Of a stretch of DNA of 64,000 nucleotides, positions 221 to 63,941 are shown piece by piece (position 1 is the stretch's first letter; every line of letters starts with the position of its first letter). A program made the position numbers and the translations under genes. This DNA is from a virus. The stretch covers positions 1 to 64,000 of the IMG/VR virus record IMGVR_UViG_3300044705_000115; one strand, written 5' to 3'. The notes below the pieces were generated by a model, which was given only the letters and a program-made list of their open reading frames with translations, was not told the DNA's origin and made no database searches.

Positions 221-245
221 CTCCTTGGTCGGGGCCACAAGCCTA
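221..245 (-). promoter_or_regulatory. -10 (TAGGCT) + CCGACCAAGGAG leader motif before ssb
   Basis: Exact motif 221-232; TAGGCT 240-245. Confidence 0.75.
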
Positions 246-261
246 CGCGCTGCAGACCCGC

Positions 262-555
262 TCAGGCGACGAGTTCTGCCGGAAAACGCTCACTCTCCTC
301 GACCACGAAGAGGTTCGTGAGCTGGGCGAGGCCGCGGGGCATCGCCCCCTGGCCCGTGTAGGCGTTCTCCCAGATGTTCTTGCCATCGGCGAGGATGCGT
401 TTCCATTCGTCCCGGGCGACTTTCTCTTCGGGCCAGCGCATCCTTTCCAGCCCGCGCTTCCAGGCGAGCTCGAAGCCGATCCCCTTCGGTCGCTGGCGCT
501 CAAGCGATTCGCGCATCTGCGCCGCAGGAGTGGGGAGTGTCCTGCGGGCGCTCAA
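262..555 (-). CDS. hypothetical protein
   Basis: ORF overlapping the upstream stop, phage-like composition. Confidence 0.6.
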   Translation of the reverse strand: MSARRTLPTPAAQMRESLERQRPKGIGFELAWKRGLERMRWPEEKVARDEWKRILADGKNIWENAYTGQGAMPRGLAQLTNLFVVEESERFPAELVA

Positions 556-956
556 TCTTCGCTGCCCTTGCCGATGTTGGGATAGCGCCGATGCACCGCC
601 GCGCGGACAGCCGACTCCTCCGGCTTGCCCGCCGAGCGCGAAAGCGCGTTCCGCGCGTGCGATTCATCGTGGATCGGGTAGGAGCCCGGCCCCGGCGCCT
701 TCTCGGGGAAGACGAAGGCCGACTTGGGCAGCGCCTTGCGTTCTTCCATCTTCAGCTTGGCCTCCTCGAGGGACAGGTCGAGTTCGCTCGCCAGCGCCTC
801 GGCCATCTTCGCCTCGTCCTTGACCGATTCGCCCGAACCGCCCTTCAGCCGCAGCTTCTTGCCGCAGCTCTTGCAGGTCACGGTCATGCCGTGCTTGGAC
901 GACTTCGCCTTCTCGCGGTCGCTCGGGTTGATCGAATGAGGAGGACAGCTAGCCAT
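552..956 (-). CDS. Zn-ribbon + DUF6582-like domain protein
   Basis: CxxC; C-terminal RKALPKSAFVFP..YPIHDESHARNALSR resembles DUF6582; GAAGGAG RBS. Confidence 0.65.
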   Translation of the reverse strand: MASCPPHSINPSDREKAKSSKHGMTVTCKSCGKKLRLKGGSGESVKDEAKMAEALASELDLSLEEAKLKMEERKALPKSAFVFPEKAPGPGSYPIHDESHARNALSRSAGKPEESAVRAAVHRRYPNIGKGSED

Positions 957-1173
957 TGGTGGCTCCTTCGAGTTGGAGGCGGGCATCGCCTCGATAGGTG
1001 CGCACCAGGCCCAGCAGGTCGTTCAACTCGTCGGAGGGCGAACCCTCCATTTCTCCCCTTACCTCTGCTTCGAGGCCCGAGAGCGCCTGGTCGCGCAGCG
1101 CAGGGTCGGCCTGGGTCTTCGCTGCTTCAATCCGCCGGCGGAGGTCAGCAGCAGGATCGGAGAACTCGGCCAC
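949..1173 (-). CDS. hypothetical protein (leaderless)
   Basis: GTG 7 nt after TAACTT (1181-1186); overlaps next gene. Confidence 0.6.
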   Translation of the reverse strand: MAEFSDPAADLRRRIEAAKTQADPALRDQALSGLEAEVRGEMEGSPSDELNDLLGLVRTYRGDARLQLEGATNG

Positions 1174-1206
1174 GAGCGGGAAGTTAGACGCCGCTGCGGA
1201 TGACGC

Positions 1207-1386
1207 TCAGTCGGTCAGCGAGTCGTCGTTGTAAATCGCGCGGGTTGCGGACCAGACCTGCTCTGCGCCCTGGTCGCCGAATAGCTCCTCAGCGACCCCC
1301 TTGGCGTTGTCCCAGCGCTGCTTCTCCTCGGCCGTGCTGACGAAGGGCGGATACTCCTGAATCACTTCTGCCTCTTCGTCAGCCAC
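1207..1386 (-). CDS. small hypothetical protein (59 aa, not in ORF track)
   Basis: MADEEAEVIQEYPPFVSTAEEKQRWDNAKGVAEELFGDQG...; GTG 6 nt after TATTCT. Confidence 0.6.
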   Translation of the reverse strand: MADEEAEVIQEYPPFVSTAEEKQRWDNAKGVAEELFGDQGAEQVWSATRAIYNDDSLTD

Positions 1387-1404: not shown

Positions 1405-3111
1405 TTAGACCTCGCCCCGGATGAAAGCCGACATCGCGGCCGGAGCGCTGGTGTCGAAGCCGACGACATCCATGCTTCCGCTGTCGTTCGGATCGGCGAT
1501 GCTGAAATCGGTCGCGGTCATGCCGCAAACGATCAGCTTGGCGTCGATGCCCGATTTCTCGCGGTACTCGCGGAGCGCCTGCATGGGATGGATGTCGCCC
1601 GCCCACGTTTCGTTGTCGGTGTAGACGCAGAAGGCATCGACCTCGCGTTCCTCCTGCATCGCGTAGATCATCGGCAGGGCGCAGTCGGTCATGCCAACGT
1701 GACTGAGCCGGTCGAACTCGGCAGCGACATCGTTCAGCCGCATCGACGGCGTGACCGCCATCGGCGTGAAGCCCCGCTCATCCCGGTAGCCGCTGAAGTT
1801 GCCGTGACCCTGGCCAACCCCCAGCGAGTGCTTGATCCCACCGGGGATTTCGGAGCCAGCGAAGGCTACGGTCTCGTAGCGCGACTCCGAGCGAGCGGTG
1901 ACCATCGCCATGACCGCAGCGGCTTCCAGAGGAAGCAGGCCACCGAGTCCGTAGCGACCCCCAGCGTGGCGCATCGAGTTCGAGACATCGACAGCCAACA
2001 GGAACCGCTTGCCGGTCGGCTCGATGTTCTCGAAGGCCGAGTAGAAGGCGGCGTTCAGCGCATCGACGATCTGCGCCACCGGACTCCAGGTGTTGCCGCC
2101 CCGGTCGCCGTGGCCACTCTTGTACGTCATCAGCGCTGAGAGGACGGTCAGCGGGTGGACGCGAGCGCGACGGATGCGCTCACTGTCGCCGAGCTGGGCG
2201 ATCACCTTCTGGGTCGCCTCCCCGAAGGGGTCGAGCAGTCCCGAGCGCGTCATGTTGCCGAGGTTGCGGATCAACGCCGTCATCGGCATGTCCTCAAGCA
2301 GCGCCTCCTGAACCACCGGATCGGTCAGATGCTCGGAGCGGATCGCCTCACGGGGCAGCTTGTAGTCGCGGATCAGGTTCGCCGAGTTGCGCGGCGACTC
2401 CGCAACCTGGGCCATCCTGAAGCCCTCGATGACGCGCAGCACATGCGAGGGCGCGTCCAAGTCTCCGATGGGCACCGGCTTCTTGGTCGCGTTGCCGGTC
2501 ACGAACTCGAACAGTTCGGCGTGAGCGATCGACGGTGCCTTCGGATGGGCCAGCCGCAGGATGTCGCGGTGAGACCAGCCGTCGCGCTGGCGATACTTGA
2601 TGAGCTGGTAGGCCAGCTTCTCTGCGGGCCGGCCCGTGTACCAAGCGGCGACGCCGTGCCGCGCGGCCGGACCCCAGCCGCGGAACTGCTCCATGAAAGC
2701 CACGAAGTGCAGGATGTGGGTGCCGGTGCGGGCGACGCGCGGCAGGGCCTTGAAGGCGGCGCGGCGCGTCCCCTCGTCCTTGAAGGAGCAGGCCATTGCG
2801 AGGCAGAACAGCGCCGTGTCGTTGTCGCGGGCGAGGCCACGGTCGCTGACCTCGGCGATCAGCTCGACCGTGCGCTCGCCGTCCTCTGCGAGGCAGGCAT
2901 CGAGCGCCGCGACATTGCCCTTGACCATCTCGCGCTGCCCGACGTAGTAGGAGCCGCCTTCGGCGCCTAGGATCAGGAACCGGCGCAGGCGCGTCCAGAT
3001 GTCAACCTCCCAGGCGAAGCCGCCAGCGTTATTGGCGACCTGGCTCGAACCGGGGATCGGCTCGGACTGGGGGGTCTTGCGCGTCGAGTGATCGCGCAGG
3101 TAGTTGCTCAT
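1405..3111 (-). CDS. rsr: Ro60-related TROVE + vWA RNA-binding protein (Rsr)
   Basis: NNAGGFAW, RLRRFLILGAEGGSYY, KYRQRDGWSHRDILRLAHPK, MPMTALIRNLGNMT, vWA MIDAS DVSNSM, TDNETW, DVVGFD; start at ATG 3111 with GAAGGAG RBS. Confidence 0.97.
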   Translation of the reverse strand: MSNYLRDHSTRKTPQSEPIPGSSQVANNAGGFAWEVDIWTRLRRFLILGAEGGSYYVGQREMVKGNVAALDACLAEDGERTVELIAEVSDRGLARDNDTALFCLAMACSFKDEGTRRAAFKALPRVARTGTHILHFVAFMEQFRGWGPAARHGVAAWYTGRPAEKLAYQLIKYRQRDGWSHRDILRLAHPKAPSIAHAELFEFVTGNATKKPVPIGDLDAPSHVLRVIEGFRMAQVAESPRNSANLIRDYKLPREAIRSEHLTDPVVQEALLEDMPMTALIRNLGNMTRSGLLDPFGEATQKVIAQLGDSERIRRARVHPLTVLSALMTYKSGHGDRGGNTWSPVAQIVDALNAAFYSAFENIEPTGKRFLLAVDVSNSMRHAGGRYGLGGLLPLEAAAVMAMVTARSESRYETVAFAGSEIPGGIKHSLGVGQGHGNFSGYRDERGFTPMAVTPSMRLNDVAAEFDRLSHVGMTDCALPMIYAMQEEREVDAFCVYTDNETWAGDIHPMQALREYREKSGIDAKLIVCGMTATDFSIADPNDSGSMDVVGFDTSAPAAMSAFIRGEV

Positions 3112-3141
3112 CTGGGGCGCTCCTTCCGGGTCAGAGTGGAA

Positions 3142-3220
3142 GACCCGGCGAGCGGGTGATGCAGACGGGGGTGATTTTCTCCAATGAAAAGGTAACCCGC
3201 CTGCTTCGGCCCGCCGGGCC
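3142..3220 (-). ncRNA. minimal Y-RNA-like RNA (Ro-binding stem only)
   Basis: 5'/3' stem GGCCCGGCGGGC/GCUCGCCGGGUC with GGGCCGAAG-N6-GGUUAC and 3' CCCGCUC shared with the neighbouring YrlA; G-U pairs support minus strand. Confidence 0.75.
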
Positions 3221-3230
3221 AAAGCTATGT

Positions 3231-3366
3231 CGCGCTGAGCGGGATGTGCGCATCGACGTTTAGCGCTCTACCAACTGAGCTACCGCTGCCTTTCGGCGGC
3301 GGACAGGACTCGAACCTGCGACCTCTCTCTTAGCGTGAGATAACCGATCCGCTTCGGCTCAGCGCG
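3231..3366 (-). ncRNA. yrlA: YrlA-type tRNA-mimicking Y RNA
   Basis: Terminal stem CGCGCUGAGC/GCUCAGCGCG with GCCGAAG motif; permuted tRNA domain: T arm GCAGG-UUCGAGU-CCUGU, acceptor-like stem closed by GAAA, D arm GCUC-AGUUGGUA-GAGC; TATGCT -10 at 3373-3378; adjacent to rsr. Confidence 0.92.
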
Positions 3367-3380
3367 TGCGCGAGCATAGC

Positions 3381-3452
3381 GAACTCGGAGCGGGTTGGTG
3401 CCTGCGGGGTTCGTTGTCAAGGCGATAACCCGCAAACTCCGGCTCCGAGTCC
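3381..3452 (-). ncRNA. second minimal Y-RNA-like RNA
   Basis: Stem GGACUCGGAGC/GCUCCGAGUUC; GAGCCGGAG-N6-GGUUAUC and 3' CCCGCUC as in YrlA. Confidence 0.72.
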
Positions 3453-3499
3453 ACTTCTGACCCGGCTGCTCCTCCCAAAGGAGCGCCGAGCGCCGCAGT

Positions 3500-3889
3500 C
3501 TACTCGTCCAGCGTGCTTTCGAGATTCGGCTCGTGCCGTCGACGACGCCTCCTGCCCCAGCGGATCGGCTGCAGTTGCAGCATCGCGCTCCAGACCCTCA
3601 TGTAGGTGTCGGCCCGCTTCTTGCCCTGCCGCCGTTTGACCGCGTCCTTGAAGTTGTCGTAGTCGATTTCGTCGCCGATCTCCAGCATCGTCGCCAGCCA
3701 TTCCCGTCGCGGCACGACAGCCCGATAGCGGTAGTCGGCGTTCTTGGTCTCGAGGATCTTCATGGTCGGCATGTGCTGGATCAAAGCCTCAAGGTCTTTC
3801 CGAACCCTCGCCCGCACCAGCACGTAGTCGCTGTCTTCTCGATGCTCGACCACGCTGTAGAAACCCTTGGTCGTAAAGAGCCACATCAC
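3500..3889 (-). CDS. conserved phage hypothetical protein
   Basis: MWLFTTKGFYSVV..VLVRAR..DL..ADYRYR..IDYDNFK motif pattern. Confidence 0.8.
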   Translation of the reverse strand: MMWLFTTKGFYSVVEHREDSDYVLVRARVRKDLEALIQHMPTMKILETKNADYRYRAVVPRREWLATMLEIGDEIDYDNFKDAVKRRQGKKRADTYMRVWSAMLQLQPIRWGRRRRRRHEPNLESTLDE

Positions 3890-4428
3890 GCCTCACCCCC
3901 TTGCCGCTCGAACTCTTCGCGGCGCTTTTTCTCCTGCTTCGCCATGACCGCCCTGCCGTAGCGCAGGGCGACCTCGCTCAGCCTGTCTTTTGCCTTTCGG
4001 TCCCGCGCGACTATCGCACTGCGCTCTGGGCCGGGATGTCCCTCGAACAGGCTGATCGTCAGGTGCGCTTCAGCGATTTCCTGCTCTCTGATTGCGGCCG
4101 AAAGTTCTTCGATCAGCTCGACCGTCGCGCCGGGCCGATGCACGTTCATCAGCCCCTCTACGCGCACCCCTTTGACCATCCGCTCGAGCGCCTGGATGCC
4201 GCGCTCGGAGAGGTTGTCTTGGAAGGTGCCGCCCTCGTAGAGGTCGGGCAAGTGATTCAGCAGGTTCCAGAGCCTCGCGCCGTTCTCGGGATCGCCTGCC
4301 CAAGAATCGGGGTTGTCTGGATGCTTACCGGCAAGCGCTAGGGCTTCGCGTAGCTCGACCACATCGCCTTCGGAGAGCGCCACCAGATGCTTCGGCTCCA
4401 AGTTCGTCGGCTGGAATCCCATGCCCAT
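3886..4428 (-). CDS. hypothetical protein
   Basis: Start trimmed to MGMGFQP; overlapped stop/start with the next gene. Confidence 0.7.
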   Translation of the reverse strand: MGMGFQPTNLEPKHLVALSEGDVVELREALALAGKHPDNPDSWAGDPENGARLWNLLNHLPDLYEGGTFQDNLSERGIQALERMVKGVRVEGLMNVHRPGATVELIEELSAAIREQEIAEAHLTISLFEGHPGPERSAIVARDRKAKDRLSEVALRYGRAVMAKQEKKRREEFERQGGEA

Positions 4429-4430
4429 GA

Positions 4431-4805
4431 TCAGCACCCCATCCCGTCGCTCTTGGACATGTCCCCAGCCTCCGGCCCGACCAGCGTGTCGATCAGATCG
4501 TCGGGGATCGACATGGTTTGGCCCAGCGCCGCATCGAAGCCGCAGACGACGAGCGGCCCGTGGATCGCGTCCCCCCGCATCAGCACAGGGGCGAGCAAGG
4601 CAGTCGCTTTCTCGTTCGGCCCGTAGAGGAACTTGCTTTCGTCGTGGATGTAGCAGGTCGCGTCGGAGCGGTCGGGGAATGGAAGCGCGTCGATCAGGCC
4701 GCCGACGAGTCCTTGAAGACCCTCCAAAGCGCTCCCCCTCTCGTCGTCGCGGGGGATGCTGATGACCTTCGCCGCGCCCTCCTCCGGGATAAGCACGACC
4801 CTCAT
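4431..4805 (-). CDS. DUF3846-like protein
   Basis: LEGLQGLVGGLID, YIHDESK, PNEKAT, D.IHGPLVVCG. Confidence 0.75.
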   Translation of the reverse strand: MRVVLIPEEGAAKVISIPRDDERGSALEGLQGLVGGLIDALPFPDRSDATCYIHDESKFLYGPNEKATALLAPVLMRGDAIHGPLVVCGFDAALGQTMSIPDDLIDTLVGPEAGDMSKSDGMGC

Positions 4806-5104
4806 GGCTTTTCTCCCTCGCTGTAGCTGATGGTCGGTGGCTCTTCGTCTTCTTCGCGCTTTCGGTTCTGCTTCTCCACAAGCTCGGCGAGCCTGCGCCT
4901 AATTCTCCGCTGGCGCTTGAAGCTGTCGTAGACGAAGAAGAGGATCAGGAGGAACCCGATGGCCGCGATGAGGCGGCCGAAGCCGTTGGCGTCGGTGTTG
5001 CTCGTGAGACTTCTGCCGGTCAGGGCGGTGTAGGCGAAGCTGACCTCAAGGAGCGCGACGCCCAGCAGCGCAACGACCACCCACCACGGAAACTTGCGCA
5101 TCAA
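4802..5104 (-). CDS. membrane protein (2 TM)
   Basis: Two hydrophobic segments followed by a basic tail. Confidence 0.7.
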   Translation of the reverse strand: MMRKFPWWVVVALLGVALLEVSFAYTALTGRSLTSNTDANGFGRLIAAIGFLLILFFVYDSFKRQRRIRRRLAELVEKQNRKREEDEEPPTISYSEGEKP

Positions 5105-5322
5105 TTCATCTCCAATCTGAATTCGGCGAGCTTCATGGAATGGCCGACCGCTTGGGCCGGAACCGGGATCTCCTCGCCCTCAGCAACGACATGGATCTCG
5201 GCGGTGATCTCCAAGCCGAGGGCTACCTTGATCCGGTTCGGCGCCGTCGTGGACTCACGCATGGCGACTCCGATCAGGGCCGGCCCCTTGCTGTCGAAGA
5301 TGAAGGCTGACATGCGGTCCAT
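5101..5322 (-). CDS. hypothetical protein
   Basis: ATG with AAGGAGG RBS of the leader motif. Confidence 0.7.
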   Translation of the reverse strand: MDRMSAFIFDSKGPALIGVAMRESTTAPNRIKVALGLEITAEIHVVAEGEEIPVPAQAVGHSMKLAEFRLEMN

Positions 5323-5330
5323 TTAGGTAC

Positions 5331-5380
5331 CTCCTTGGTCGGGTGCCAACAAAGTTAGCACAGATAATCGCGGTGTGCAG
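5331..5380 (-). promoter_or_regulatory. SigA-type promoter CTGCAC-N17-TAACTT + TGTTGGCACCCGACCAAGGAG leader
   Basis: One of four near-identical extended copies (also 22900, 42441, 51022). Confidence 0.8.
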
Positions 5381-5693
5381 CACCCCAAAGTGCCTTGCGA
5401 TTAGACCTTGCGAGAACCCTCACAAGCTCTCGCCGGCGCTCGCGCGTCATGTGCCCAAGTAGCCGATGCTCGGGTTCCCCAAGCCGCTTCATAGCGGCCT
5501 TTGCCTTGGTCTCGCCGAAGAAGGGCGCCCACTGGATTACGTCGAAAACGCGGGCGTTGGCGGCACAGTCGGGGCAGATTTCGAGGACATCGTCGAGCCG
5601 GATGTCGCGCCTGTGCAGAGATTCTTTGAGCATCCGGCGTTCGACGCGAACCCGGTTGGCGATCGAGAGGTTGTGGAGCCGCTGGTCGGACAG
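5355..5693 (-). CDS. actinobacterial integration host factor (mIHF)-like protein
   Basis: QRLHNLSIANRVRVERRMLKESL..RLDDVL..ARVFDVIQWAPFFGETKAKAAMKRL..RLLGHMTRERRRELV follows the mIHF H2TH pattern; frame open upstream of ATG 5633 to a CTG 7 nt after TAGGCT. Confidence 0.65.
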   Translation of the reverse strand: MSDQRLHNLSIANRVRVERRMLKESLHRRDIRLDDVLEICPDCAANARVFDVIQWAPFFGETKAKAAMKRLGEPEHRLLGHMTRERRRELVRVLARSNRKALWGAAHRDYLC

Positions 5694-5703
5694 ACAAAAA
5701 AGC

Positions 5704-8700
5704 CTATCCGTCGATGCGTTTGACCCTCGTCTTGGCGTCGATCAGGCCGAGGCTGCCCGACTTGAACCCGACCAGCGTTTTGCCCTCAGGCCCAGGCCCG
5801 ACGACGGAGGCGATGGTGCCGTCTTTGTCGGTGATGACGGCGCCGGGCTCGAGTTCTTCGAGCCGGTAGTGCATGTACTTCCCTTTCGACCCCCACTTCG
5901 ATGTGTAGCCGTTGAGCTCGGAGGTCGGCACATCGTCCATCGCCTGACCAGCTTCCGCCAGCACCTTTTCGACATCGGGCGACCACTGCGACTGCAGCGC
6001 CGCCGTGGGGTCGAGCTTCTGCGTGTCTTTCAGAACCAGCGTCGATGGCAACTGGTTGAGGCTGCCCCCCTCGTCCTTGATGATCGTGTTGCCATCGACC
6101 GTGTGGGCAACGACCTCGTTGGCACCGTTCGTCGTCGTGTACTTCTCCCCCGGCTTCAGGTCGCTGACGACGAACTCGCCGGGCATTGGTTTCACGCCCG
6201 CTGCGGGTTTCGCCGGAGCCAGCGGCCAGTCGCTCGTCGTGGCGCCGGGTGGCGCTTTGTGGAAGTTGCCCTGGGCGTCCTGAAGAACCACGCCATCGAG
6301 CGATTTGGCGATGACGGTGTAGTCCTTCAAGTCGTTACCGAAGAACGTTTCGCCCTCGTGGATGCTTTCGATGTTCTCGCTGGCGAGCGCCTTCTTCAAC
6401 TCGTCATCGCCCTTCGCTGTCAGCTTCACCTTGTCGGGGATGAGCTCCGCTTTGACCGAGAACTTGGCGCCGTCGGGATCGGTCATCTCGACCACTGCGT
6501 CTTCGGGGTGCTTGCCTTTGGACGCACCGACCGTGTAGGCGTAGCCAGCGATGGTGACCTTCGTGCCGACCGGCAGTTTCCCGATCGGCGTCTCGTCGCT
6601 GTTCGGCAGCAGACCCTTGGCGGCATCTGCCTGGCCAGGGTCCGTACCCGGCCCCGGCAGCGGCCCGGTGGCGTCGTTGAAGTCGGCGGTTACGGCGCGG
6701 CCACGCAGCTTCGGGTCGGCGCTGTAGAGGAGCTGGCCGTCGGTGACGATGACATCGCCGTCGTTGGCCTTGACCTTCCACAGCTTGCCTTCTTTGCCGC
6801 GGAAGATCGTTCCCACCGGCATGTCGCCGATCTTGTCGTGGGTGTACTTGCCGCCGCTGCCGTGCTTGGAGATATACGCCTCGAAGCCACCCTCCTCGAC
6901 ATGGGAGGGCATCCCCGAACTGCTCGGCGCTGGCGACTCGGCGTGGATCGCCGGGTTCTTGCCGATGAAGGTGATCGGCTTGTCGGGGTAGCTCCAAGCC
7001 GTTTCGGAGGCGGAGAGGTGGCCGGACGGCTGCACCATCGCCACCGTCAGGTTGTCCTCCGGGCCTCCCTTGGCCTGGACTTTGAAAAGCTCCCCGCCGT
7101 CCTTGAAGTAGTCGCCCACCTCCAGGTTGCTGAGGGTCGTCGAGTCCTCGGGTTTGAGCTGGTCGTGGGGGATCGCTTTCTCGCCGAGTTCGTTCTTCGC
7201 CCACAGCTCCGTGACCTTCGCATCGTCGGGGTAAGCCGTGACATCGCCGCTGGCCAGGTTCTTGACCGGCTTCTTGCCCGGCTCAGTCGATGCATTGGGA
7301 TCGCCGAAGACGGCTTCGTAGACATTCCCGGTCCAGTCCACGAACTTGTCCCCGTGTTCGAGGTCGGCAACCTGAAGCTCGGCGCCGGGAACGTAGTCGT
7401 CAGCGCTGAACGGCGCGTCCGCTGACTTCGGCGTGTTCTTGGGCTCGTCAGGCGCCGGAGAGGCTTCGGCATCGAGCAGACGGCGCACCACCTTGGACTT
7501 GGTCGAGACCCCCGCCTCGCCCGTGTCGAGGTTCTTCCACAGCACTTTGTTGCCCTCGGTGCCGGTGACCAGATAGGGGCGCTGAGACTGGCCGCGGCCC
7601 CCGTGGAAGAGGTCGCCGACAGCGAGATCGCCGACCTTGATTTTTGAGCCGATCTTGTGCGCCTGCGGGTCGTAGAGATCAGCGAGAGCTTCGTCGTCGG
7701 GCGAGATCGCCACGACTTTGCCGCCGGACGGTTTCGCCTTGATCGTCCCATCCTTCAAGACCTTCGTGATCGTGTGCTTCTTGCCCTGATAGGGCAGCGT
7801 CATCCCTTTCTGCGGGGTGAGCTGCGGCGCAGCGACATCCTCTTCGTCGGGGACGTAGCCCTCCTTGGCGACGAGAGTCGGCGTCTTGTAGTCGGTGTTG
7901 ATCGTCCCGACTTTCCCCGTCATCAGGTCGAGAATCTGCGTCTTCGCGCCGTTGATCTGGGCTTTGACTTCGTAGGGGTTGCCGTTGACCTTGAATTTCT
8001 CCCCCTCGGCCATCTGGCCGGTGAACTTCTCGCCCGTGCCGTTCACCCAGGCGTTGGGGTCGAACAGCTCCGACTCGGCCTGCAGCTTGTGCGGGTCGGG
8101 CAGGTCGTAATGCTCGCTCAGCTTGAAGTACTGGTTCTGGCCGCCGCCCTCGAAGTTGTAGCTCTCCCCAGTGAACTTGCCGTTCTCGATCTTCACGTAG
8201 CGCAGGCCGAATCCGGTGTCGTCGCCGGGGTCCTCAACGATCAGGTAGAGCGTGCCTTTCAGCCCCATCATGTAGTCGCCGGGCTTCAGTTCCGACTCCT
8301 TGGCGACGGTCGCTTTCGGCGTGCCGTCGGCGTTCTTGAATGCCCACGGCCCCGACTTGTCGAGCTCTGCCGGAGTCCACGGCTTGCTCTGCTGCGATGG
8401 CAGCTTGTCGGCGAAGCGAGCCGAGAACTCGGCGGCCTCCGCCGGCGGGTCGATCCAGAGCTTCTGCGCCTGGCCCTGCATCTGAACATCGGGCGGCGCT
8501 GGCGGGGTCGGCAGCATCTCGCCGTTCTCGATCGCGTCGCGGAAGCGTTCGATGGTGGCGCCGCCGGAGGGCGCTTTGGTGACGCCCATCAGCCACTTTT
8601 TCTGGTTCTCGGTGATGTCGTAGAGCGAGAAGTACATCGACCGCTTGTCGATCTTGATCTGCTCCGCGACGCTGATCTCCAGCTCGCCGACGAAGTGCGT

Positions 8701-10212
8701 CTGCCCTGGGATCGGCTGCGCCGAGTAGGACGACATCAGGACATGGCGGATCGCCAGCGGCGTAGCGAGCGTGTTGTTGCCGAACTGGAAGTTGGCCCCG
8801 AAGTTGAAGCTCTGCGAGAGGCCGGACATGATCGGCTTCTTGCCGTCGATCATGGCCTGCCAGTAGCTCGGCGCGTTCGTGTTCTTGTGGAAGACCGCGA
8901 CATCCGGCGAGCGGGTGCGGTTGTAGAGGTCCCAGGCGACGATGTCTTTGTGGCGGCCCTGCAGCGCCAGCGCCAGTTTGCGCTGCTCGTCCAGCTTGCC
9001 GAGTTCGGTTTTGCCGCCCTTGAACGCCTTGAACATCGAGGCCAGCGAGAGCGTGAAGCCGCTCGACGACCCATACTGGGCGGAATAGGCGTTCTTGACG
9101 ATTGACTGGATCGTCGCCTCGTAGTCCTTGTAGCTCTCGTCGATCAAGTCCTTCGCCTTGCCCGGCGAGTATTTGCCGAATCTCTGCATCAGCTCGGCGT
9201 AATGCTCCTGATCGACCGAGCCGAAGCGCTGCCACTCCTCCGGCTTGATCTTCGAGTGGGCGGGGATCGCGATGGAAGGGTCATGGGTCGTCGGATCGAC
9301 GTAGGGATCGACGGTCGCCACGCCGGATTCGATGCCCTTGGCCTTGTCCGATTTCAGAGCTACCGGCTTGCCCTCCTTCTTGGCGTCAGCGATGAACGCC
9401 TTGCCGCCCTCAAGGGAAGGGCTGAAGACGCCGGTTTCCGCGTCTTTGAAGCTCTTGCCGATGCGGTTGGCGATGACCTTCCCGCCCGCAAGGTGGGCGA
9501 CCTGCCACTCCTTGCCGTCTCCCGAGATGAAGGTCTCGCCGACCTTGATGAACTCGCCCGCCTTCGGCGTCCCTTTCGGCCAGCGGGGGTGCAGGGTCGG
9601 GTCCCACTTGCCCTCCATCAGCGCCTCCGCGAGGCTGGCGGCGGCGCTGCCGCCGAGGGCGAAGCTGTATCGGTCGCCCCCCCAGGCGAGCGTCACGCGC
9701 GAGAACGCGACCGGGATCGGCTTCTCGATATTCGGTCGCCGGCGGGCGTAGTCGAGCGTCATGTGCGGCGTGAAGCCGTGGTCGCGGCTCGGCGGCAGGC
9801 CCGCCTGGTCGAGCGTATCGACGAGTTCCTGCCGCAGCGGAGGGAGGTCGGGAAGATCGACCGAGAGGTAGGTGACCGGCCCAGCGATGAACTGACCGAC
9901 GCCGCTGATCTCTCCGCGCATCTCTTCCGGGCACTTCGCGGCCCAGGTCGCTACGACTCGCAGCGCGTCTTTGAGGTCGAGATCAGCGGCCTTCCCGAGG
10001 AACGCGAGCGTCACATGGAGTTCATCGGCGTCCTCGCCGTCGGCGATGGCCAGCTCGGCCGCCGTGGCGGCGTCGGGGAAGAGAGCGACCATCGCGCCTT
10101 GCTTGGTCGCCGCCGTCGCGGCCTCCATAAGGGAAGCGGCAGCGGTGTCAGCGAGCAGTTCGTCGGGGTCGCCGTCAGCCTCGACCGGCTCGAAGACAGG
10201 TTCGCGCAGCAC
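5704..10212 (-). CDS. giant (~1500 aa) multidomain protein: 2H phosphoesterase + possible ART-like domain + SH3/KOW-like repeats
   Basis: HVTL and HMTL HxT motifs; WDPTLHPRWPKGTPKAGEF; about nine (D/E/N)L..GD.F-type repeats; start GTG 7 nt after TACCCT. Confidence 0.85.
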   Translation of the reverse strand: MLREPVFEPVEADGDPDELLADTAAASLMEAATAATKQGAMVALFPDAATAAELAIADGEDADELHVTLAFLGKAADLDLKDALRVVATWAAKCPEEMRGEISGVGQFIAGPVTYLSVDLPDLPPLRQELVDTLDQAGLPPSRDHGFTPHMTLDYARRRPNIEKPIPVAFSRVTLAWGGDRYSFALGGSAAASLAEALMEGKWDPTLHPRWPKGTPKAGEFIKVGETFISGDGKEWQVAHLAGGKVIANRIGKSFKDAETGVFSPSLEGGKAFIADAKKEGKPVALKSDKAKGIESGVATVDPYVDPTTHDPSIAIPAHSKIKPEEWQRFGSVDQEHYAELMQRFGKYSPGKAKDLIDESYKDYEATIQSIVKNAYSAQYGSSSGFTLSLASMFKAFKGGKTELGKLDEQRKLALALQGRHKDIVAWDLYNRTRSPDVAVFHKNTNAPSYWQAMIDGKKPIMSGLSQSFNFGANFQFGNNTLATPLAIRHVLMSSYSAQPIPGQTHFVGELEISVAEQIKIDKRSMYFSLYDITENQKKWLMGVTKAPSGGATIERFRDAIENGEMLPTPPAPPDVQMQGQAQKLWIDPPAEAAEFSARFADKLPSQQSKPWTPAELDKSGPWAFKNADGTPKATVAKESELKPGDYMMGLKGTLYLIVEDPGDDTGFGLRYVKIENGKFTGESYNFEGGGQNQYFKLSEHYDLPDPHKLQAESELFDPNAWVNGTGEKFTGQMAEGEKFKVNGNPYEVKAQINGAKTQILDLMTGKVGTINTDYKTPTLVAKEGYVPDEEDVAAPQLTPQKGMTLPYQGKKHTITKVLKDGTIKAKPSGGKVVAISPDDEALADLYDPQAHKIGSKIKVGDLAVGDLFHGGRGQSQRPYLVTGTEGNKVLWKNLDTGEAGVSTKSKVVRRLLDAEASPAPDEPKNTPKSADAPFSADDYVPGAELQVADLEHGDKFVDWTGNVYEAVFGDPNASTEPGKKPVKNLASGDVTAYPDDAKVTELWAKNELGEKAIPHDQLKPEDSTTLSNLEVGDYFKDGGELFKVQAKGGPEDNLTVAMVQPSGHLSASETAWSYPDKPITFIGKNPAIHAESPAPSSSGMPSHVEEGGFEAYISKHGSGGKYTHDKIGDMPVGTIFRGKEGKLWKVKANDGDVIVTDGQLLYSADPKLRGRAVTADFNDATGPLPGPGTDPGQADAAKGLLPNSDETPIGKLPVGTKVTIAGYAYTVGASKGKHPEDAVVEMTDPDGAKFSVKAELIPDKVKLTAKGDDELKKALASENIESIHEGETFFGNDLKDYTVIAKSLDGVVLQDAQGNFHKAPPGATTSDWPLAPAKPAAGVKPMPGEFVVSDLKPGEKYTTTNGANEVVAHTVDGNTIIKDEGGSLNQLPSTLVLKDTQKLDPTAALQSQWSPDVEKVLAEAGQAMDDVPTSELNGYTSKWGSKGKYMHYRLEELEPGAVITDKDGTIASVVGPGPEGKTLVGFKSGSLGLIDAKTRVKRIDG

Positions 10213-15134: not shown

Positions 15135-15252
15135 GTCGCTCCTTGGCGGGAGGATTGGCGGCTGCTGCGGGTGAAGGTAGCAGCGGCAGCAGCCAGTACC
15201 CGGAGAAAAACTTCTGGGAGGAGATGGCGCCGTGGCGGCGAAGGAAGCTGGT

Positions 15253-18111: not shown

Positions 18112-19223
18112 CAGGCGAAGCCGACTTTGGCCTTCCCTTTCGGGCGACCACCGTCCCGGCGCTCGGCGAGCGCGTAGATGCTGGCGAGCGTGTGCGACTG
18201 AGCGGGCATCTGATCGGCCGCATCGAAGTCAGCCAGCTTTTCGAGCAGGTTGGCGGCCTCGACGACCGACAGCCGGGCGAAATGAACCTCGGAAGCAGCT
18301 CGACCATGCCGAGTCACGGCCTCGTTCAGGTCGCCCAGTTCTTCGTTCGTGGTGACCATCGTCATCACGCGGAGGCCCTGGCCGATCAGCCCATCGACGG
18401 AATTCAGGAAGCGCGAGAGGGCGGCGCCGACCTCGCTCTTGGCGTCCTTCGCCAGCAGCTCGCCCGCGTCCTCGAGGACGAGCAAGCGCCACTTCGCTGG
18501 CGCTTCTCCGTCTTCAAGATCCTCCTCGTCTTCGTCACTGCCAGCGCCAAGCATGACCTGCAGCATGTAGTCAGCATGGGAGCCGAAGAACTGATCGGGG
18601 TCGGTGATGTAGTGGATTTCGGCCCAGTCCTTCCAAGCCTGCCCGAGCGCCCGCAGAGCTGTCGTCTTCCCAGTGCCAGGCTCGCCGTGCCAGAGAACGA
18701 GCTGACCGGAGCGGCCGGGCCGGTAGTCGGGCTGCATCAGCGGCCCAAGGCGCTGTACGGCCTCCGCTGCGTAGTTGCCTTCGATTTCCGCCCAGGTCGG
18801 TGCGAGCAGGTCGCGGCGGGTGGCGTGCGGCCCTTCCGGCGTGTAAGACCAGAAGGTGACCGGGATGCGGCCCTTGTCCTTCGGCTCATGGCGCGGCAAC
18901 ACACCCCGGAAAGACTCGATGCCCGCGCGGGCCTGCTCGGGCTTAACGGCGGCGACTTTGATGTCGGCGTTGCCGTACCCCACCCAAGCGCTGACCGCGA
19001 TCTCGTTGCTGACGATCCACAGGCAGCGGAAGACGCCCGAGTTGATCTCATCGACGATGTCGGGTGCGGGGTCGAGCGTGAACGGGTCCTTGATCACGCA
19101 GGGCCAGGAGGCCGAAGCGAGGTAACGGAGGCCGTTGACGGTGCGGGCCTTGATGAAGTTGGCATCCGCAGGGAAGCCAGTTTCAACTACGAAATCGAAT
19201 TGAACTGCGTTCTGGTCGGACAT
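18111..19223 (-). CDS. AAA+ ATPase (DUF5925-like)
   Basis: Walker A GEPGTGKT, Walker B LLVLED, SRFLNSVDGLIGQG, TTN, arginine finger RHGR. Confidence 0.9.
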   Translation of the reverse strand: MSDQNAVQFDFVVETGFPADANFIKARTVNGLRYLASASWPCVIKDPFTLDPAPDIVDEINSGVFRCLWIVSNEIAVSAWVGYGNADIKVAAVKPEQARAGIESFRGVLPRHEPKDKGRIPVTFWSYTPEGPHATRRDLLAPTWAEIEGNYAAEAVQRLGPLMQPDYRPGRSGQLVLWHGEPGTGKTTALRALGQAWKDWAEIHYITDPDQFFGSHADYMLQVMLGAGSDEDEEDLEDGEAPAKWRLLVLEDAGELLAKDAKSEVGAALSRFLNSVDGLIGQGLRVMTMVTTNEELGDLNEAVTRHGRAASEVHFARLSVVEAANLLEKLADFDAADQMPAQSHTLASIYALAERRDGGRPKGKAKVGFA

Positions 19224-19655: not shown

Positions 19656-20097
19656 CCTTCCAGCCCGAGATCATCACGTAGCCCCGGCCAGCGAGCATGT
19701 CGGCCTGCTTGCCCTCGAAGCCCAGCGTCTCCGGCGTGATGACCTTCCAGAGGTCGAGTACTTGGCCAAGCGCCATCAACCGCAGCGCCACATCCTGCGA
19801 ACCAACGGCGGCGCCGAGCTCGATGTAGCTCGGGCCGCCAGCCAGCCGTTCGGGTTCGGGGTAGTTCTTGCACCAGCCGATCAGCTCGGGCTTCATCGCC
19901 TCGGCCTTCTCGCGGTCGATCCCCACGACGATGAAGTGCATGTCCACCTGGGCGAGGTCGGGCGGCGCGTCCGCGAGGCTGGGCATCGCGTAGATGTGCG
20001 TGACCTTGACCGCTCCTTTGTCTTCCTCGACGACCTCCTCGCCCTTGCGGAATTCCGCCGTCGCGTCGATCAGGGCTTCTATGAAGGCGGACTCCAT
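19648..20097 (-). CDS. conserved phage hypothetical protein
   Basis: VDMHFIVVG..GGPSYIELGAAVGSQ..AL.LMALG..L.LW.V.TP. Confidence 0.8.
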   Translation of the reverse strand: MESAFIEALIDATAEFRKGEEVVEEDKGAVKVTHIYAMPSLADAPPDLAQVDMHFIVVGIDREKAEAMKPELIGWCKNYPEPERLAGGPSYIELGAAVGSQDVALRLMALGQVLDLWKVITPETLGFEGKQADMLAGRGYVMISGWKDA

Positions 20098-21157: not shown

Positions 21158-21169
21158 GGCTTGGTGAGC

Positions 21170-21196
21170 CTCCTTGGTCGGTTGGCGGGCAGGGTA
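21170..21196 (-). promoter_or_regulatory. -10 (TACCCT) + CCGACCAAGGAG leader motif
   Basis: Exact motif 21170-21181. Confidence 0.7.
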
Positions 21197-45725: not shown

Positions 45726-45769
45726 CAGGCGTGCCTCTGGAACTTCACCTTTTCGCTCAACGCGAAATC

Positions 45770-45795
45770 CTCCTTGGTCGGGTGCGAGCAGGCTA
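45770..45795 (-). promoter_or_regulatory. -10 (TAGCCT) + CCGACCAAGGAG leader motif
   Basis: Exact motif 45770-45781. Confidence 0.7.
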
Positions 45796-50558: not shown

Positions 50559-50584
50559 CTCCTCGGTCGGGTCGGCCAAGGTTA
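50559..50584 (-). promoter_or_regulatory. -10 (TAACCT) + CCGACCGAGGAG leader variant
   Basis: One mismatch to the motif. Confidence 0.6.
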
Positions 50585-51002: not shown

Positions 51003-51021
51003 GCCACGGGGGGCGGGCGTT

Positions 51022-51072
51022 TCCTTGGTCGGGATGCCAACGAAGTTATCAGTCCTTCAGCAGCCCTCGCAA
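51022..51072 (-). promoter_or_regulatory. promoter TTGCGA-N18-TAACTT + CGTTGGCATCCCGACCAAGGA leader
   Basis: Fourth extended copy. Confidence 0.75.
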
Positions 51073-51550: not shown

Positions 51551-51575
51551 CTCCTTGGTCGGGAAGGCGAGCCTA
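51551..51575 (-). promoter_or_regulatory. -10 (TAGGCT) + CCGACCAAGGAG leader motif
   Basis: Exact motif 51551-51562. Confidence 0.7.
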
Positions 51576-52802: not shown

Positions 52803-52819
52803 CAGTTCTCTCCTCCTTT

Positions 52820-52842
52820 CTTGGTCGGGTTCCAGCGTTCTA
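52820..52842 (-). promoter_or_regulatory. -10 (TAGAAC) + CCGACCAAG leader variant
   Basis: CCGACCAAGAAAGGAGG. Confidence 0.55.
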
Positions 52843-53195: not shown

Positions 53196-53693
53196 TCAGT
53201 GCGAGCGCGAGTGAACCGGGCATCCGTCGCGCAGGGCGGCTGCCAGCTCGGGCCGGATGTCGCTGCGCTGATGCGCCTCGAAGATGCGCGTGATCAGCCC
53301 CTCGTCAGCGAGCATCGCCGTGGCGCTGTCGGCACAGGTGCAAACCTCGCTCTCGCGCTCGTGCGGGTTCTTCCACGGCAGCGCCAGCCCATCGCCGAGA
53401 CGGCGCGGCAGGACATGGAAGTGGAGATGGCGAACAGTCTGTGTCGCCTCCTTGCCCTTGCTCGTGATGAGGTTGGCGGGGGTGCCGTAGCTGGCCGACC
53501 ATTCGGCTGCCCGCGCCGCGACCTTGCCGGTCACCAAGGGGTTCTCGGCGAAGTCCTCGACATGCACCCACGGGACGACGAGGACATGCCCTGCGGTCAC
53601 CTGGCGCAGCGGCTCGATGACGTAGCAGTCGCCGTAGTCCATCAGCACATCGCTCGGCCCCTCGTAGTCGCAGAACGGGCAGCCGTCTCTCAC
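53196..53693 (-). CDS. HIT-family nucleotide hydrolase
   Basis: CPFC, GHVLVVP..H, ATQTVRHLHFHVLPR histidine triad. Confidence 0.92.
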   Translation of the reverse strand: MRDGCPFCDYEGPSDVLMDYGDCYVIEPLRQVTAGHVLVVPWVHVEDFAENPLVTGKVAARAAEWSASYGTPANLITSKGKEATQTVRHLHFHVLPRRLGDGLALPWKNPHERESEVCTCADSATAMLADEGLITRIFEAHQRSDIRPELAAALRDGCPVHSRSH

Positions 53694-54126: not shown

Positions 54127-54239
54127 AGGCGCTCTCCTCTCCTCGGTCGTTGGACGAGAGGAAGCCTACCGGTAAAGAAGAGATACGGGAAACGATTGTC
54201 CGCGGCCCGCCCAGACACGGGCCGTCGGTCAACCGGAAC

Positions 54240-56024: not shown

Positions 56025-56050
56025 CTCCTTGGTCGGTTGGCGCCAGCCTA
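56025..56050 (-). promoter_or_regulatory. -10 (TAGGCT) + CCGACCAAGGAG leader motif
   Basis: Exact motif 56025-56036. Confidence 0.7.
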
Positions 56051-58783: not shown

Positions 58784-58809
58784 CTCCTTGGTCGGTTCGG
58801 TGAAGACTA
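58784..58809 (-). promoter_or_regulatory. -10 (TAGTCT) + CCGACCAAGGAG leader motif
   Basis: Exact motif 58784-58795. Confidence 0.65.
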
Positions 58810-62200: not shown

Positions 62201-63058
62201 GCCTTTGGCGAAGCGCCGGTCGTAGGGGGCCTCGATCAGGTTCATGGCGACGCGGTGATCCTCCATCGCCTCGACTAGGCGCCGCAGTTCGTCCTCGTCG
62301 GTGACCGCCTCGCGCAACTCGGCGAAGCGTTCCTGAAGCTGGCGGGCCAGTGCGATCCCGTCCTCGGGCGGCGGAGGCGTGAAGTCGTGCGGCAGGAAGC
62401 CCTCGCTGATCGCTTCATCCAACCCGTAGAGGCGGCAGGGGCAGTTGGGGTGGCGCGGAGGGTGGATGACGTCCAGCACCGCCCACGGCCAGAACTTCCC
62501 CGCCATCACCAGGCAGTCGATCGTGTGCGACTTCACGAACGGGCTGAGCCGCCAGTAGGCGCCGAGCGGCGAGGTCCGCTTCAGCGACTCGCGCTCCTGG
62601 GCGGAGATGGAGCGGCTGAGCATCGCTTCCTGCCGCTGGCGGATGTAGCGGAACTCGCGTTCGAGCAGTACTCGCAGGGCGGCTTCGGGGTCGTTGGAGG
62701 AGAGCAGCGCCTTCGGGATGTCGCGCTCGAGCCGCGCTTCCATCTTGCGGATGAACTGCGCCCCGCGGTCGGCCTCCTCCTGGGCCAGCTTGCGCAGCAG
62801 GTCTTCTGGCTCGGCCGGGAACTGCCGGCGGAGCGTCTGCCACAGCCAGAAGATGTCGTCGGAGCCGTTCCCCCAGAACTTCCGCAGCGCCTCGATCGAA
62901 GCGGCGGTGGTGGCGGCGAGCGCGGCTGGCTCGAGGACGGCGGCCCCGGTCGCCGGGATCGCGGTCGCCGCCGCGGCGGTTGCGGCTCCTGCACCGGCCG
63001 CTCCGGCGGCCCCAGCGCCCGAGCTGCGTGGTTCTTCGGCGCGGCGAGGCTGCGGCAT
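59213..63058 (-). CDS. MuF-like head morphogenesis protein with C-terminal extensions (peptidase-like, HipA/PI3K-like kinase, degenerate ADP-ribosyltransferase)
   Basis: HTIDCLVMAGK..PPRHPNCPC (MuF); HEAVGH..LEEALAE; GGSNGA..WLVK..SELLA..NWDVVG..DNVL..RLDQG; INAALR..DAGY..ILVPAG. Confidence 0.85.
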   Translation of the reverse strand: MPQPRRAEEPRSSGAGAAGAAGAGAATAAAATAIPATGAAVLEPAALAATTAASIEALRKFWGNGSDDIFWLWQTLRRQFPAEPEDLLRKLAQEEADRGAQFIRKMEARLERDIPKALLSSNDPEAALRVLLEREFRYIRQRQEAMLSRSISAQERESLKRTSPLGAYWRLSPFVKSHTIDCLVMAGKFWPWAVLDVIHPPRHPNCPCRLYGLDEAISEGFLPHDFTPPPPEDGIALARQLQERFAELREAVTDEDELRRLVEAMEDHRVAMNLIEAPYDRRFAKGTVKGGEFMPKVGGFAAAVSHDLKDAVGDLLAVNTKKRGRAGSAKVAVPRPPGGHTPDSYRRAWAKSEETAKRLREVGVDKMPGGHGPVSANEDTHPHAGGPPKDFHAWRGRVQDGVDEAAAAHDAKAVFQGIDVNPNEPDTTALRWFDGRSEIGKDAPGHLDELRANPENAEAQRRGYLLYSRAAHEAVGHGVNPVTPEEYSTPDGYALEEALAEETGRIEGKRWLAADGFEGASKWAEANPDHPTAKGAYTLERTRLAHLLDEAGVPAEARAGLVETMGFRQGHQARVLLLGGLLAKQQGISPGEAGIRVRATLRGERDHELGIADESGALVPDYDTKLPVVPEGVLSAAEPSKTGDGPTDTGGAVEAPQIAAETAQNAPGEPVKLTKGSGPQFFDARHYSDPRRSLLRKMAALPAYEPFNSAAPEMVTLADGSNIKRGPKGSMRFTKPDGESKLYSTPQRLANAETVGVLERHGITDDRLGKAVPPQMAPSDGTEQRAPAEEDKALQMSLAEKPPAPVLGVPSYSAEDAGLTDFKPAGGSNGAQFATDKDGRKWLVKPYRGNRDRVASELLANAVYRELGIDVPNAGQMQVDSSLKKAPVEEPSPPPKGDPKVKTVDGKKTYFVGDQEVSKADFDAANSAWSGQIASLGKATAQQHAFPTGGKSWTAVAYPARDGDIERWNGESQPLGEGFMADALLGNWDVVGLDQDNVLWGPDGEPIRLDQGGTFEFRAMGKPKPYGPVPTEAWTMRAPGGGQAFGRMALNDQMLRDQAGDIAERLTPQRIDALVDAAPFADEAMRERVRENLKARVSFMGEIADGTEGLPGPAEGADAQRELDAGLRKAGGLYPEEEHALGDLADGGEAINAALRSGDPGDHAKTVDVMDALMRDVRSPEDAYVYVPTSIEGLGAQDAEALRGRRLRDAGYLIASIDPSQAETGKAVMRILVPAGAPALPMGEYSTEPGAVLINRGQSVRIAGAHEENGSLVIDAVLTRS

Positions 63059-63094
63059 CGCAGCAGAGGATAGGCGCGGGGGCGGGCTCTTACC

Positions 63095-63295
63095 TCAGCC
63101 GCACGCTACGCAGAGTACATCCGAGCGCAGTGGCGAGGCGCATCGCTTGCAGACGCCGTAGTCCGGCTTGCAGTCCGGGCAGAGCCATTCGCTGTTCTCG
63201 ACTCGGGCGCAGATGCCGCAGACCGGGCGCTGGCAACCGAAGCAACGGAATGCCTCGTCGTGGTCCTCGCCGTCGCCCTCGCGGTGACAGATCAC
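63095..63295 (-). CDS. Cys-rich Zn-finger protein
   Basis: Multiple CxxC motifs; start uncertain. Confidence 0.6.
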   Translation of the reverse strand: MICHREGDGEDHDEAFRCFGCQRPVCGICARVENSEWLCPDCKPDYGVCKRCASPLRSDVLCVACG

Positions 63296-63582
63296 ACAGG
63301 GTCGCCCTTCCAGTCCGTCCCCTCGACGGGCCGCAGGTCTGTGCTGGCCTTCGCCGCGCATCCGGCACACCAGATGTGGTAGCGGCGGTGCGGTTTGGCG
63401 ATCAGGTACGGCTCGCCCTCGGCGAGTCCCTTCAACTCGACGCTCGGTGGCAGTTTCGCGTAAGAGCCGCAGAGCGTCGGGAGCATGGCGCGGCTGTTGC
63501 GCCGCCCGGCGAAGCTTGGACTGCCGAAATAGGCCGGGTCGGACGGGAGGTGGATGACGATGGGGTCATCCACTGGGCGCAC
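63292..63582 (-). CDS. hypothetical protein
   Basis: IHL..TLCG..WCAGC. Confidence 0.6.
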   Translation of the reverse strand: MRPVDDPIVIHLPSDPAYFGSPSFAGRRNSRAMLPTLCGSYAKLPPSVELKGLAEGEPYLIAKPHRRYHIWCAGCAAKASTDLRPVEGTDWKGDPV

Positions 63583-63826
63583 ACCTCGGGCAGAACTCGC
63601 CGCGCTCGTTGGTGGTCCAGCCCTCCGGCAGCGCTGGCTCGCTGACGCGCTTGATGGAGCCGCAGGAATCGCACATCACGCTCATCGTCTCGGAGCCCGC
63701 GCCGGCGCCGCGGCGAATCGCCTCGGCTCGCATAGAGGCGAAGCGCTCCTCAACCGTCTCCTCGCCGGTCGCCTTCATCTCGATGGTGCCAGTGTCTAAG
63801 TGGAGGATGTTTCGCTTGGTCGGCAT
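63566..63826 (-). CDS. Zn-binding hypothetical protein (leaderless)
   Basis: CDSCG..LPEGW..FCPRC; ATG 6 nt after TAGGAT; first codons CCG ACC AAG match the leader motif. Confidence 0.7.
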   Translation of the reverse strand: MPTKRNILHLDTGTIEMKATGEETVEERFASMRAEAIRRGAGAGSETMSVMCDSCGSIKRVSEPALPEGWTTNERGEFCPRCAPSG

Positions 63827-63941
63827 CGCGCTATCCTAGCCGCCATGCTCCTCAGCTACGGAACCCGGCCCCGCTCCGAGAGCGCTCCCGGCCCGCTGGA
63901 ACGCTAGCGCGGCTCGACCGCGCTTCCTCAGCAGTACTCAT

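Follow-up and report, generated by a model that had tools for sequence, protein, structure and literature searches.

In the published passages on them, the start-associated sequences (SAS) of cluster K mycobacteriophages and cluster EF Microbacterium phages are 13-bp asymmetric repeats, present in 10–19 copies in one orientation, that lie at the position of the ribosome-binding site (RBS), with a Shine-Dalgarno (SD) core flanked by conserved bases unable to pair with 16S rRNA. They are described there as confined to non-structural genes and as having a function without explanation, about half of the sites have a 17-bp inverted repeat (ESAS) upstream, and the motif is uncommon in the genome of the host. 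According to excerpts on cluster A phages, the operators and stoperators of the L5 gp71 system are asymmetric 13–14 bp sites, at least 20 per genome, in strict orientation to transcription, and the stoperators are spread across short intergenic spaces and gene termini. In the portions of the T4 literature drawn on here, RegB sites and RegA operators lie in the initiation regions of many early but not late mRNAs, and one phage protein shuts the set. Here we describe an oriented motif, CCGACCAAGGAG, in the first 64 kb (64,000 nucleotides, hereafter the window) of the 130,043-bp IMG/VR record IMGVR_UViG_3300044705_000115, the genome of a phage that we call G000. Judged by its sequence features, the motif is a variant of the SAS kind and not a stoperator system, and we see about an even chance that it is a 5′-leader tag on early and middle mRNAs that would be read as RNA after transcription.

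The window contains 12 exact copies of CCGACCAAGGAG, all on the minus strand, against 0.01 expected from shuffled sequences, and none of 100 shuffles reached 12; at up to two mismatches there were 36 matches against 9.3 expected. The whole of G000 has 17 exact copies, 15 on the minus and two on the plus strand, and the backwards control gave none. An earlier note on this DNA had listed the 12 exact copies and seven variants as pointing with the downstream gene. All 12 are present where it placed them, the variants lie within 1–3 nt of its positions (42439, 51021 and 52817 instead of 42441, 51022 and 52820), and all 19 sites are indeed oriented with the downstream gene. The plus-strand copies, two exact ones outside the window and the variant at 22938, each precede a plus-strand gene. 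The 3′ part of the motif, AAGGAGG, is a full SD sequence that stands 4–12 nt before the start codon in most copies. Fourteen of the 17 exact copies were called as RBSs and the other three likewise after start correction (at least three gene starts near motifs, at 221, 58784 and 127633, were corrected by eye), whereas five or six of the variant copies are not RBSs. The motif is absent from the late structural module at 98–127.5 kb of G000, and it appears to be confined to early and middle mRNAs, with timing judged from gene content.

The position of the motif follows promoter-like hexamers closely. The earlier note had put a TANNNT-like hexamer ahead of every site; a strict TANNNT ends 7–12 nt upstream at 18 of the 19 window sites, but 52817 has TAGAAC instead. 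For the 9-mer CCGACCAAG, a TANNNT ends 5–14 nt upstream of 21 of the 27 copies in G000 and 22 of the 27 in G003, a syntenic relative; in an equivalent window this hexamer was found at 0.7% (G000) and 1.3% (G003) of random positions and at 3/173 and 6/169 non-motif genes, respectively. The motif occurs at none of the 114 G000 genes with an upstream gap below 30 nt but at 19 of the 79 with a larger gap, and the corresponding counts were 3/102 versus 15/88 in G003 and 0/14 versus 11/29 in G001, a more distant fragment. By these sequence measures the motif is a strand-specific, promoter-proximal element. Two promoter types were recognised ahead of it. Class A reads TGCTAACTT(T/C)GTTGGC, and its cassettes are alike over ~35 nt; class B reads GC(A/T)GC-N0-4-TANNNT. 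A generic sigma-70 and terminator scan of 20001–40000 returned no two-hexamer promoters, and terminators at chance level, so that the promoter calls used here are built on −10 hexamers only.

This tight placement raises the question of whether the motif is part of the promoter itself, that is, an initially transcribed sequence needed by the host or a phage-modified RNA polymerase for start or escape. The motif does start in a narrow band, 7–14 nt after the −10 hexamer, with both promoter classes, and it follows the class A hexamer in all seven G000 cases and all nine G003 cases. However, its register varies by 7 nt, and in G001 the same motif lies further downstream of a different promoter type (TTGACT-N17-TAYNNT). 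Moreover, three tRNA genes begin 6–7 nt after a TANNNT without the motif (30909–30921, 31585–31597 and G000 65513–65525) and therefore would be transcribed nearly without a 5′ leader, and 18 of 25 predicted leaderless genes also lack it. The motif is thus, as far as these predicted promoters tell, not needed for the promoter-like hexamers themselves, and a promoter role seems improbable to us.

The CCGACC part of the motif can be separated from the SD sequence. Canonical anti-SD pairing covers AAGGAGG only. Among the 30 AAGGAG sites of G000, 14 are preceded by exactly CCGACC and 16 by unrelated hexamers, which bears out the earlier claim that anti-SD pairing does not account for CCGACC; exact CCGACC stands before 15 of 33 such sites in G003 and 10 of 12 in G001. 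In sequence terms, the CCGACC part therefore marks a discrete class of RBS and not a graded extension of the SD. The motif was found in three contexts: fused to an SD in the majority of copies, at the head of a longer leader with an SD of its own, and after the start codon of predicted leaderless genes. The copies with a distal SD (22938 on the plus strand, 42439, 51021 and 52817, plus 83310 on the plus strand outside the window) keep CCGACCAAG, and their GGAG has decayed to GGAA, GGCT, GAAA or GGAT. Leaderless genes were predicted from a TANNNT 4–9 nt before the start codon, which selected 25 genes in G000 and G003 together. CCGACC lies within the first 14 nt (codons 2–4) of seven of these 25 but of only 5 of the 358 other genes (Fisher p 1.4e-6). 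The persistence of the motif away from the SD and within leaderless genes, as the note had it, is thus borne out. A further site of this kind, additional to those in that note, is CCGACC in codons 2–3 (19214–19219, minus strand) of a predicted leaderless AAA/DUF5925 gene, with its ATG at 19223 and TAGGGT ending 7 nt before the ATG. The ortholog of this gene in G003 (72126) keeps CCGACC though the residues change (MSDQ against MPDR). Because of these three contexts, the element appears to start at about +2 to +8 of the predicted transcript whatever its relation to the start codon.

The conservation of the motif was followed in two relatives. G003 is a complete, syntenic genome of 134,735 bp with a terminase 82% identical in amino acids to that of G000 and 19 exact copies of the motif; the two phages share 96 reciprocal-best protein pairs, mostly at 45–75% identity. 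The 96 orthologous upstream regions contain the motif in both phages in 7 cases, in G000 only in 4, in G003 only in 4 and in neither in 81. Where the motif is shared, it is the same over all 13 nt, as is the −10 hexamer, while the 7–12 nt between the two and the spacer from SD to start codon differ. Where it is present in one phage only, the gene of the other phage is usually an internal cistron without a promoter; on this comparison, orthologs gain and lose promoter and motif jointly. G001 is a 35-kb fragment with a terminase 51% identical to that of G000 and 12 exact copies on one strand. A different promoter type is seen there (TTGACT-N17-TG-n-TAYNNT), and the distance from motif to start codon is fixed while that to the −10 hexamer varies from 11 to 17 nt. 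Judging by these genomes, the motif is common to a family-level lineage comprising G000, G003 and G001.

This comparison also bears on the idea that the motif is merely a strong RBS, in which a promoter-plus-RBS cassette has spread by duplication with CCGACC hitch-hiking. The motif contains a 7-nt SD at 4–12 nt from start codons, the class A cassettes resemble one another over ~35 nt, and many copies in a second phage lineage, described below, precede paralogous genes. On the other side, the motif is exact between G000 and G003 while the 7–12 nt on either side diverge, the genes that it leads are unrelated to one another (SSB, RecT, Ku and helix-turn-helix (HTH) proteins), it persists where it does not serve as the SD and in leaderless genes, and it is never found at internal cistrons of G000 (0/114). 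We therefore give little credence to this explanation. In a comparison with PHROGs, nearly all motif-led genes were without known function.

An IMG/VR scan with a 15-mer returned 89 stretches, with multiple copies on only two contigs, and a scan with a 14-mer gave no new multi-copy contig among the matches listed. A second lineage was found by motif search; it consists of G002 (19 kb) and G409 (130,481 bp, 56% G+C), which share 40–90% amino-acid identity with each other and show no terminase similarity to G000. In G409, GACCAAGGAGG occurs 24 times, against none in the control, at the RBSs of small early genes, many of them paralogous, with ordinary TTGACT-N17-TAYGAT promoters ~19 nt upstream. 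Apart from one 128-residue protein, only general proteins are common to this lineage and G000. The element is thus not phage-specific in the narrow sense of the earlier note: it is shared within a family-level lineage, and an unrelated phage lineage uses GACCAAGGAGG.

Sharing of GACCAAGGAGG between two unrelated lineages could point to a reader in the host, such as an unusual 16S rRNA 3′ tail matched by an extended SD, or to use of the motif by the host itself. Because the second lineage was found through a motif search, its likeness may possibly be a chance resemblance over four bases. None of the 120 metagenome matches listed to a complementary 16S-tail probe was an rRNA end, and no enrichment of the motif was detected in 401 Chloroflexota genomes (two of them, G280 and G046, unpublished, with one match each): 59 have at least one match, the maximum per genome is three against up to five for the backwards control, and the multi-match cases are coding repeats. 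Five genomes with relatives of the Ro60-like protein Rsr also showed no enrichment. In addition, pairing with rRNA leaves the leaderless and distal-SD copies unaccounted for, and we consider both a host-matched SD and use of the motif by the host very improbable. A single Chloroflexota contig, L123 (G020:C222:1-1576), has at ~20–90 a TTGACG-N17-TACAAT, 8 nt, the full motif and an ATG, which could be chance or a phage fragment.

Taken together, we propose that some early and middle mRNAs would carry a CCGACCA(A)G tag among their first nucleotides, with its start at about +2 to +8 behind a −10-only promoter. Fusion of the tag to GGAGG, seen in most copies, would make the 12–13 nt unit the RBS of the first cistron as well. 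The single-stranded 5′ tag would be recognised in trans by a reader (a protein of the phage or some component of the host), which would control how the tagged transcripts are translated, or how long they last, as a group, with a logic akin to the T4 RegA/RegB operators or to a 5′ stabiliser. We favour action at the RNA level because the motif follows the predicted transcript starts and is indifferent to the register of the start codon, and because it is dispensable for the promoter-like hexamers of tRNA genes, fused to the SD in minimal leaders and absent from late genes. More tentatively, the motif could possibly be a 9-nt single-stranded 5′ address placed directly behind the transcription start of a chosen set of mRNAs, leadered as well as leaderless, by which a dedicated reader would sort transcripts for translation, protection or timed destruction.

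Several points weigh against this proposal. RNA folding gave no consistent pattern of structure or accessibility in the leaders, no reader of the tag was identified in G000, and the only protein families common to all motif-bearing phages were general ones, for example SNF2 and ParB_N. The transcript starts to which the motif appears tied, in preference to start codons, are predictions from the DNA only, and both the gene starts and the leaderless calls come from our own crude gene caller. Finally, orientation is no proof of action as RNA, because strand-specific asymmetric DNA operators have precedent.

That precedent leads to a DNA operator, at which a monomeric phage DNA-binding protein would sit at about +2 to +14 and block or tune 20–25 early and middle promoters, much as the cluster A repressor acts at its operators and stoperators; we regard this as unlikely, yet as a rival to be taken seriously. 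In its asymmetry, its length of 12–13 bp, its number (about 20 copies) and its orientation with transcription, the motif matches the stoperators of the published passages, and it is the −10 hexamer, not the start codon, that sets its position. Several HTH proteins are encoded in G000, among them an ArsR-like, a HARE-HTH and an HTH_24 protein, and two of their genes have the motif in their own leaders. However, searches with L5 gp71 (phmmer at E up to 10; tblastn) detected no homolog in either G000 or G003, and no integrase family turned up among the 193 G000 proteins in general Pfam scans. Unlike stoperators, the sites occur only at promoters (0/114 tight junctions; 21/27 behind a −10 hexamer), and most copies have, as their 3′ half, a perfect SD at a functional spacing. 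In G001, moreover, it is the distance to the ATG that is constant, with the motif 11–17 nt from the −10 hexamer. The ArsR-like protein, whose own leader carries the motif and which the earlier note had offered as a binding partner, has no reciprocal-best partner in G003.

The RNA-tag proposal sits most closely beside the SAS, and the analogy drawn to cluster K in the earlier note was apt as far as the published passages on SAS extend. Copy number (17 in G000, 19 in G003 and 12 in the G001 fragment, against 10–19), asymmetry, RBS position with an SD core, one orientation relative to genes and restriction to non-structural genes all agree. The motif differs from SAS in sequence, the consensus in those passages being GGGATAGGAGCCC and GGGAAAGGACCCC. 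An ESAS-type inverted repeat (at least nine matched positions, at most 60 nt upstream) was found at none of the 17 G000 copies and at 6 of 200 control positions. The strict link to a −10 hexamer and the SD-free and leaderless copies seen here are not reported in the passages on SAS, and G000, unlike the phages that carry them, is unrelated to cultured phages. A literature search for the motif as a string matched 51 papers, and the 20 listed all had titles on eukaryotes. The T4 RegA/RegB system resembles the present one in that the motif lies in initiation regions of early and not late genes (timing again judged from gene content); it differs in sequence and in the extent of conservation, the conserved part here being 5′ of GGAG and tied to the transcript 5′ end, and Pfam scans of G000 gave no RegA or RegB family. 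STAB-SD, the 5′ mRNA stabiliser of Bacillus thuringiensis cry3A, a 5′-proximal SD-like sequence that does not serve initiation, would, by the source excerpts, fit the copies with a second SD further on. Four or five copies fit it by position, but in these the SD part is weakened (GGAA, GGAT or GGCT) and CCGACCAAG is kept. We treat both T4 RegA/RegB and STAB-SD as functional analogies only.

In the present case the SD and the conserved 5′ part come apart, since copies of the latter are also seen ahead of a distal SD and within leaderless genes, and the element is tied to the predicted transcript start across family-level divergence. This narrows the possible mechanisms, suggests reporter tests and offers a sequence-based way to predict transcription units in a family of uncultivated phages. 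SAS-type motifs have reportedly been known since 2011 with a mechanism lacking; if the more tentative 5′-address reading is true, an mRNA 5′-tag regulon would give the SAS motifs of actinobacteriophages a testable mechanism.

Candidates for the reader were sought among the G000 proteins. The 128-residue protein at 3500–3886 (minus strand), which belongs to no known family, is the one small protein that G000 has in common with the second lineage (35% identity to G409 and 34% to G002); as a common reader it was rejected, being absent from G003. The ArsR-like protein was set aside on account of its missing G003 partner, since G003 has 19 exact copies. The earlier note had also suggested a role for Rsr; nothing connects Rsr to the motif, and a Y-RNA-like match adjoins rsr instead. 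This match, to Rfam RF01656 at 3383–3451 (minus strand; 40.4 bits against a gathering score of 38, E 7.6e-5), falls in the 388-nt gap that immediately precedes the Ro60/Rsr gene (1405–3111). RF01656 is a nematode sRNA family related to Y RNAs, and, because of its place next to rsr, the match may represent a Y-RNA-like partner for the Rsr of this phage. Pfam and PHROGs scans detected no RegA or RegB family, and most early proteins fall in no family at all. A HARE-HTH protein (L009:19042-19341, minus strand, equivalent to G000 82938–83240) has a Lys/Ala-rich N-terminal tail and is kept in G003 (71% identity) and G001 (40%); its gene is motif-led in G000 and G003.

The individual exact copies, all on the minus strand, stand in the following settings. 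The copy at 221–232 forms the leader of the SSB gene, with TAGGCT ending 7 nt upstream and a GTG 5 nt downstream; this gene runs across the contig end, and the Pfam SSB match was obtained on the wrapped open reading frame (ORF). At 5331–5342 the motif follows a class A promoter (TGCTAACTTTGTTGGCAC) ahead of a 73-residue gene, and the G003 ortholog has an identical motif and promoter between different flanks. The copy at 21170–21181 comes after GCAGC-N-TACCCT and precedes the 201-residue first gene of a long operon. That at 26065–26076 lies in the leader of the ArsR-like HTH gene, with TAAGAT ending 9 nt upstream; ahead of this promoter a hairpin and then a T-rich stretch were noticed by eye. 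Further along, the copies at 29527–29538 (after GCAGCAGGTAGCCT), 34110–34121 (after GCAGCGGCTACGTT) and 36223–36234 (after GCAGCAGGTAGGCT) precede genes of 198, 120 and 152 residues, respectively. The G003 ortholog of the 34110 gene keeps the −10 hexamer and the motif with different spacers, and that of the 36223 gene is an internal cistron with neither promoter nor motif. At 38589–38600, TAGGAT ends 8 nt upstream and a 199-residue gene follows. The SD of the copy at 45770–45781 serves an 11-codon mini-ORF (TTG to TGA; 45726–45761, minus strand). As read from the sequence, the mini-ORF stop overlaps the ATG (45725) of a 77-residue gene, and the two may therefore be translationally coupled. TAGGCT ends 7 nt upstream of the copy at 51551–51562, which leads a 162-residue gene, and 8 nt upstream of that at 56025–56036, which leads a methyltransferase-like gene. 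The copy at 58784–58795 has TAGTCT ending 8 nt upstream and a TTG start 6 nt downstream that opens 80 codons.

The variants are more diverse. On the plus strand, CCGACCAAGGAA at 22938–22949 follows a class A promoter and is followed by a hairpin (22950–22981) and a separate SD, with the ATG of a 515-residue gene 32 nt on, so that this copy is not the RBS. Its G003 ortholog (~68.68 kb, minus strand) keeps promoter, motif and hairpin, with the hairpin of different sequence. The other variants are on the minus strand. A class A promoter also precedes CCGACCAAGGCT at 42439–42450, in which the SD part reads GGCT and a leader SD, GAGGAGG, lies further downstream, and CCGACCAAGGAA at 51021–51032, in which it reads GGAA and a strong separate SD stands before the ATG at 50969. 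CCGACCGAGGAG at 50559–50570 has TAACCT ending 8 nt upstream and leads a 61-residue gene. CCGACCAAGAAA at 52817–52828, with GCAGCGTCTAGAAC upstream and the hexamer TAGAAC, ends in AGAAA and then runs into GGAGGAG. TAGGCT ends 12 nt upstream of ACGACCGAGGAG at 54139–54150. Finally, CCGACCAAG at 63815–63823 directly follows the ATG (63826–63824) of a predicted leaderless gene, with TAGGAT ending 6 nt before the ATG.

Two further features concern the promoters. The class A core is an imperfect palindrome, GTGCTAAC-TTT-GTTGGCAC, that overlaps the −10 hexamer in all seven G000 and nine G003 copies (5343–5365, 22921–22937 on the plus strand, 42451–42470 and 51035–51053 in the window; G000 83.29 kb and 127.66–127.73 kb), and it looks like an operator for a dimeric regulator, distinct from the motif. 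A third promoter-like repeat, GAAGTTTTTyyCAGGGT-N-CTGCTGCGCTGCTACCTTC, stands ahead of structural genes at ~15150–15215 (minus strand) of the window and at ~115.4 kb and ~120.8 kb of G000. It is free of the motif and is probably a late promoter class.

G000 has a 127-bp terminal repeat, 65% G+C, 26 tRNA genes and 193 protein-coding genes, 188 of them on the minus strand, as called by our ORF and codon-usage gene caller. Pfam matches describe a contractile-tailed phage with sheath, tube, baseplate J and a GpA-type terminase, and also include Ro60/Rsr, Ku, an ATP-dependent ligase, RecT, SSB and several DNA methylases. No cultured-phage match by megablast or tblastn was obtained for two window regions, and the terminase, capsid and portal matched known phages only below 30% identity; by sequence comparison, G000 is without a close cultured relative. 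Its DNA was found in two soil metagenome runs, both of DNA, which may be the source of the record. With regard to the host, the atlas look-alikes of one G000 protein are mostly from Actinomycetota, and among bacterial Rsr proteins the closest matches found (45–51% identity) come from Chloroflexota genomes. Actinomycetota typically have leaderless genes and promoters that consist of a −10 hexamer alone. Genes resembling an RNA repair or RNA surveillance set lie at 1405–10212, 38624–39256 and 53196–53693 of the window; they encode Rsr, a HAD/PNK-phosphatase-like protein, a HIT protein and a 1502-residue protein with an N-terminal 2′-5′ RNA ligase/LigT-like domain.

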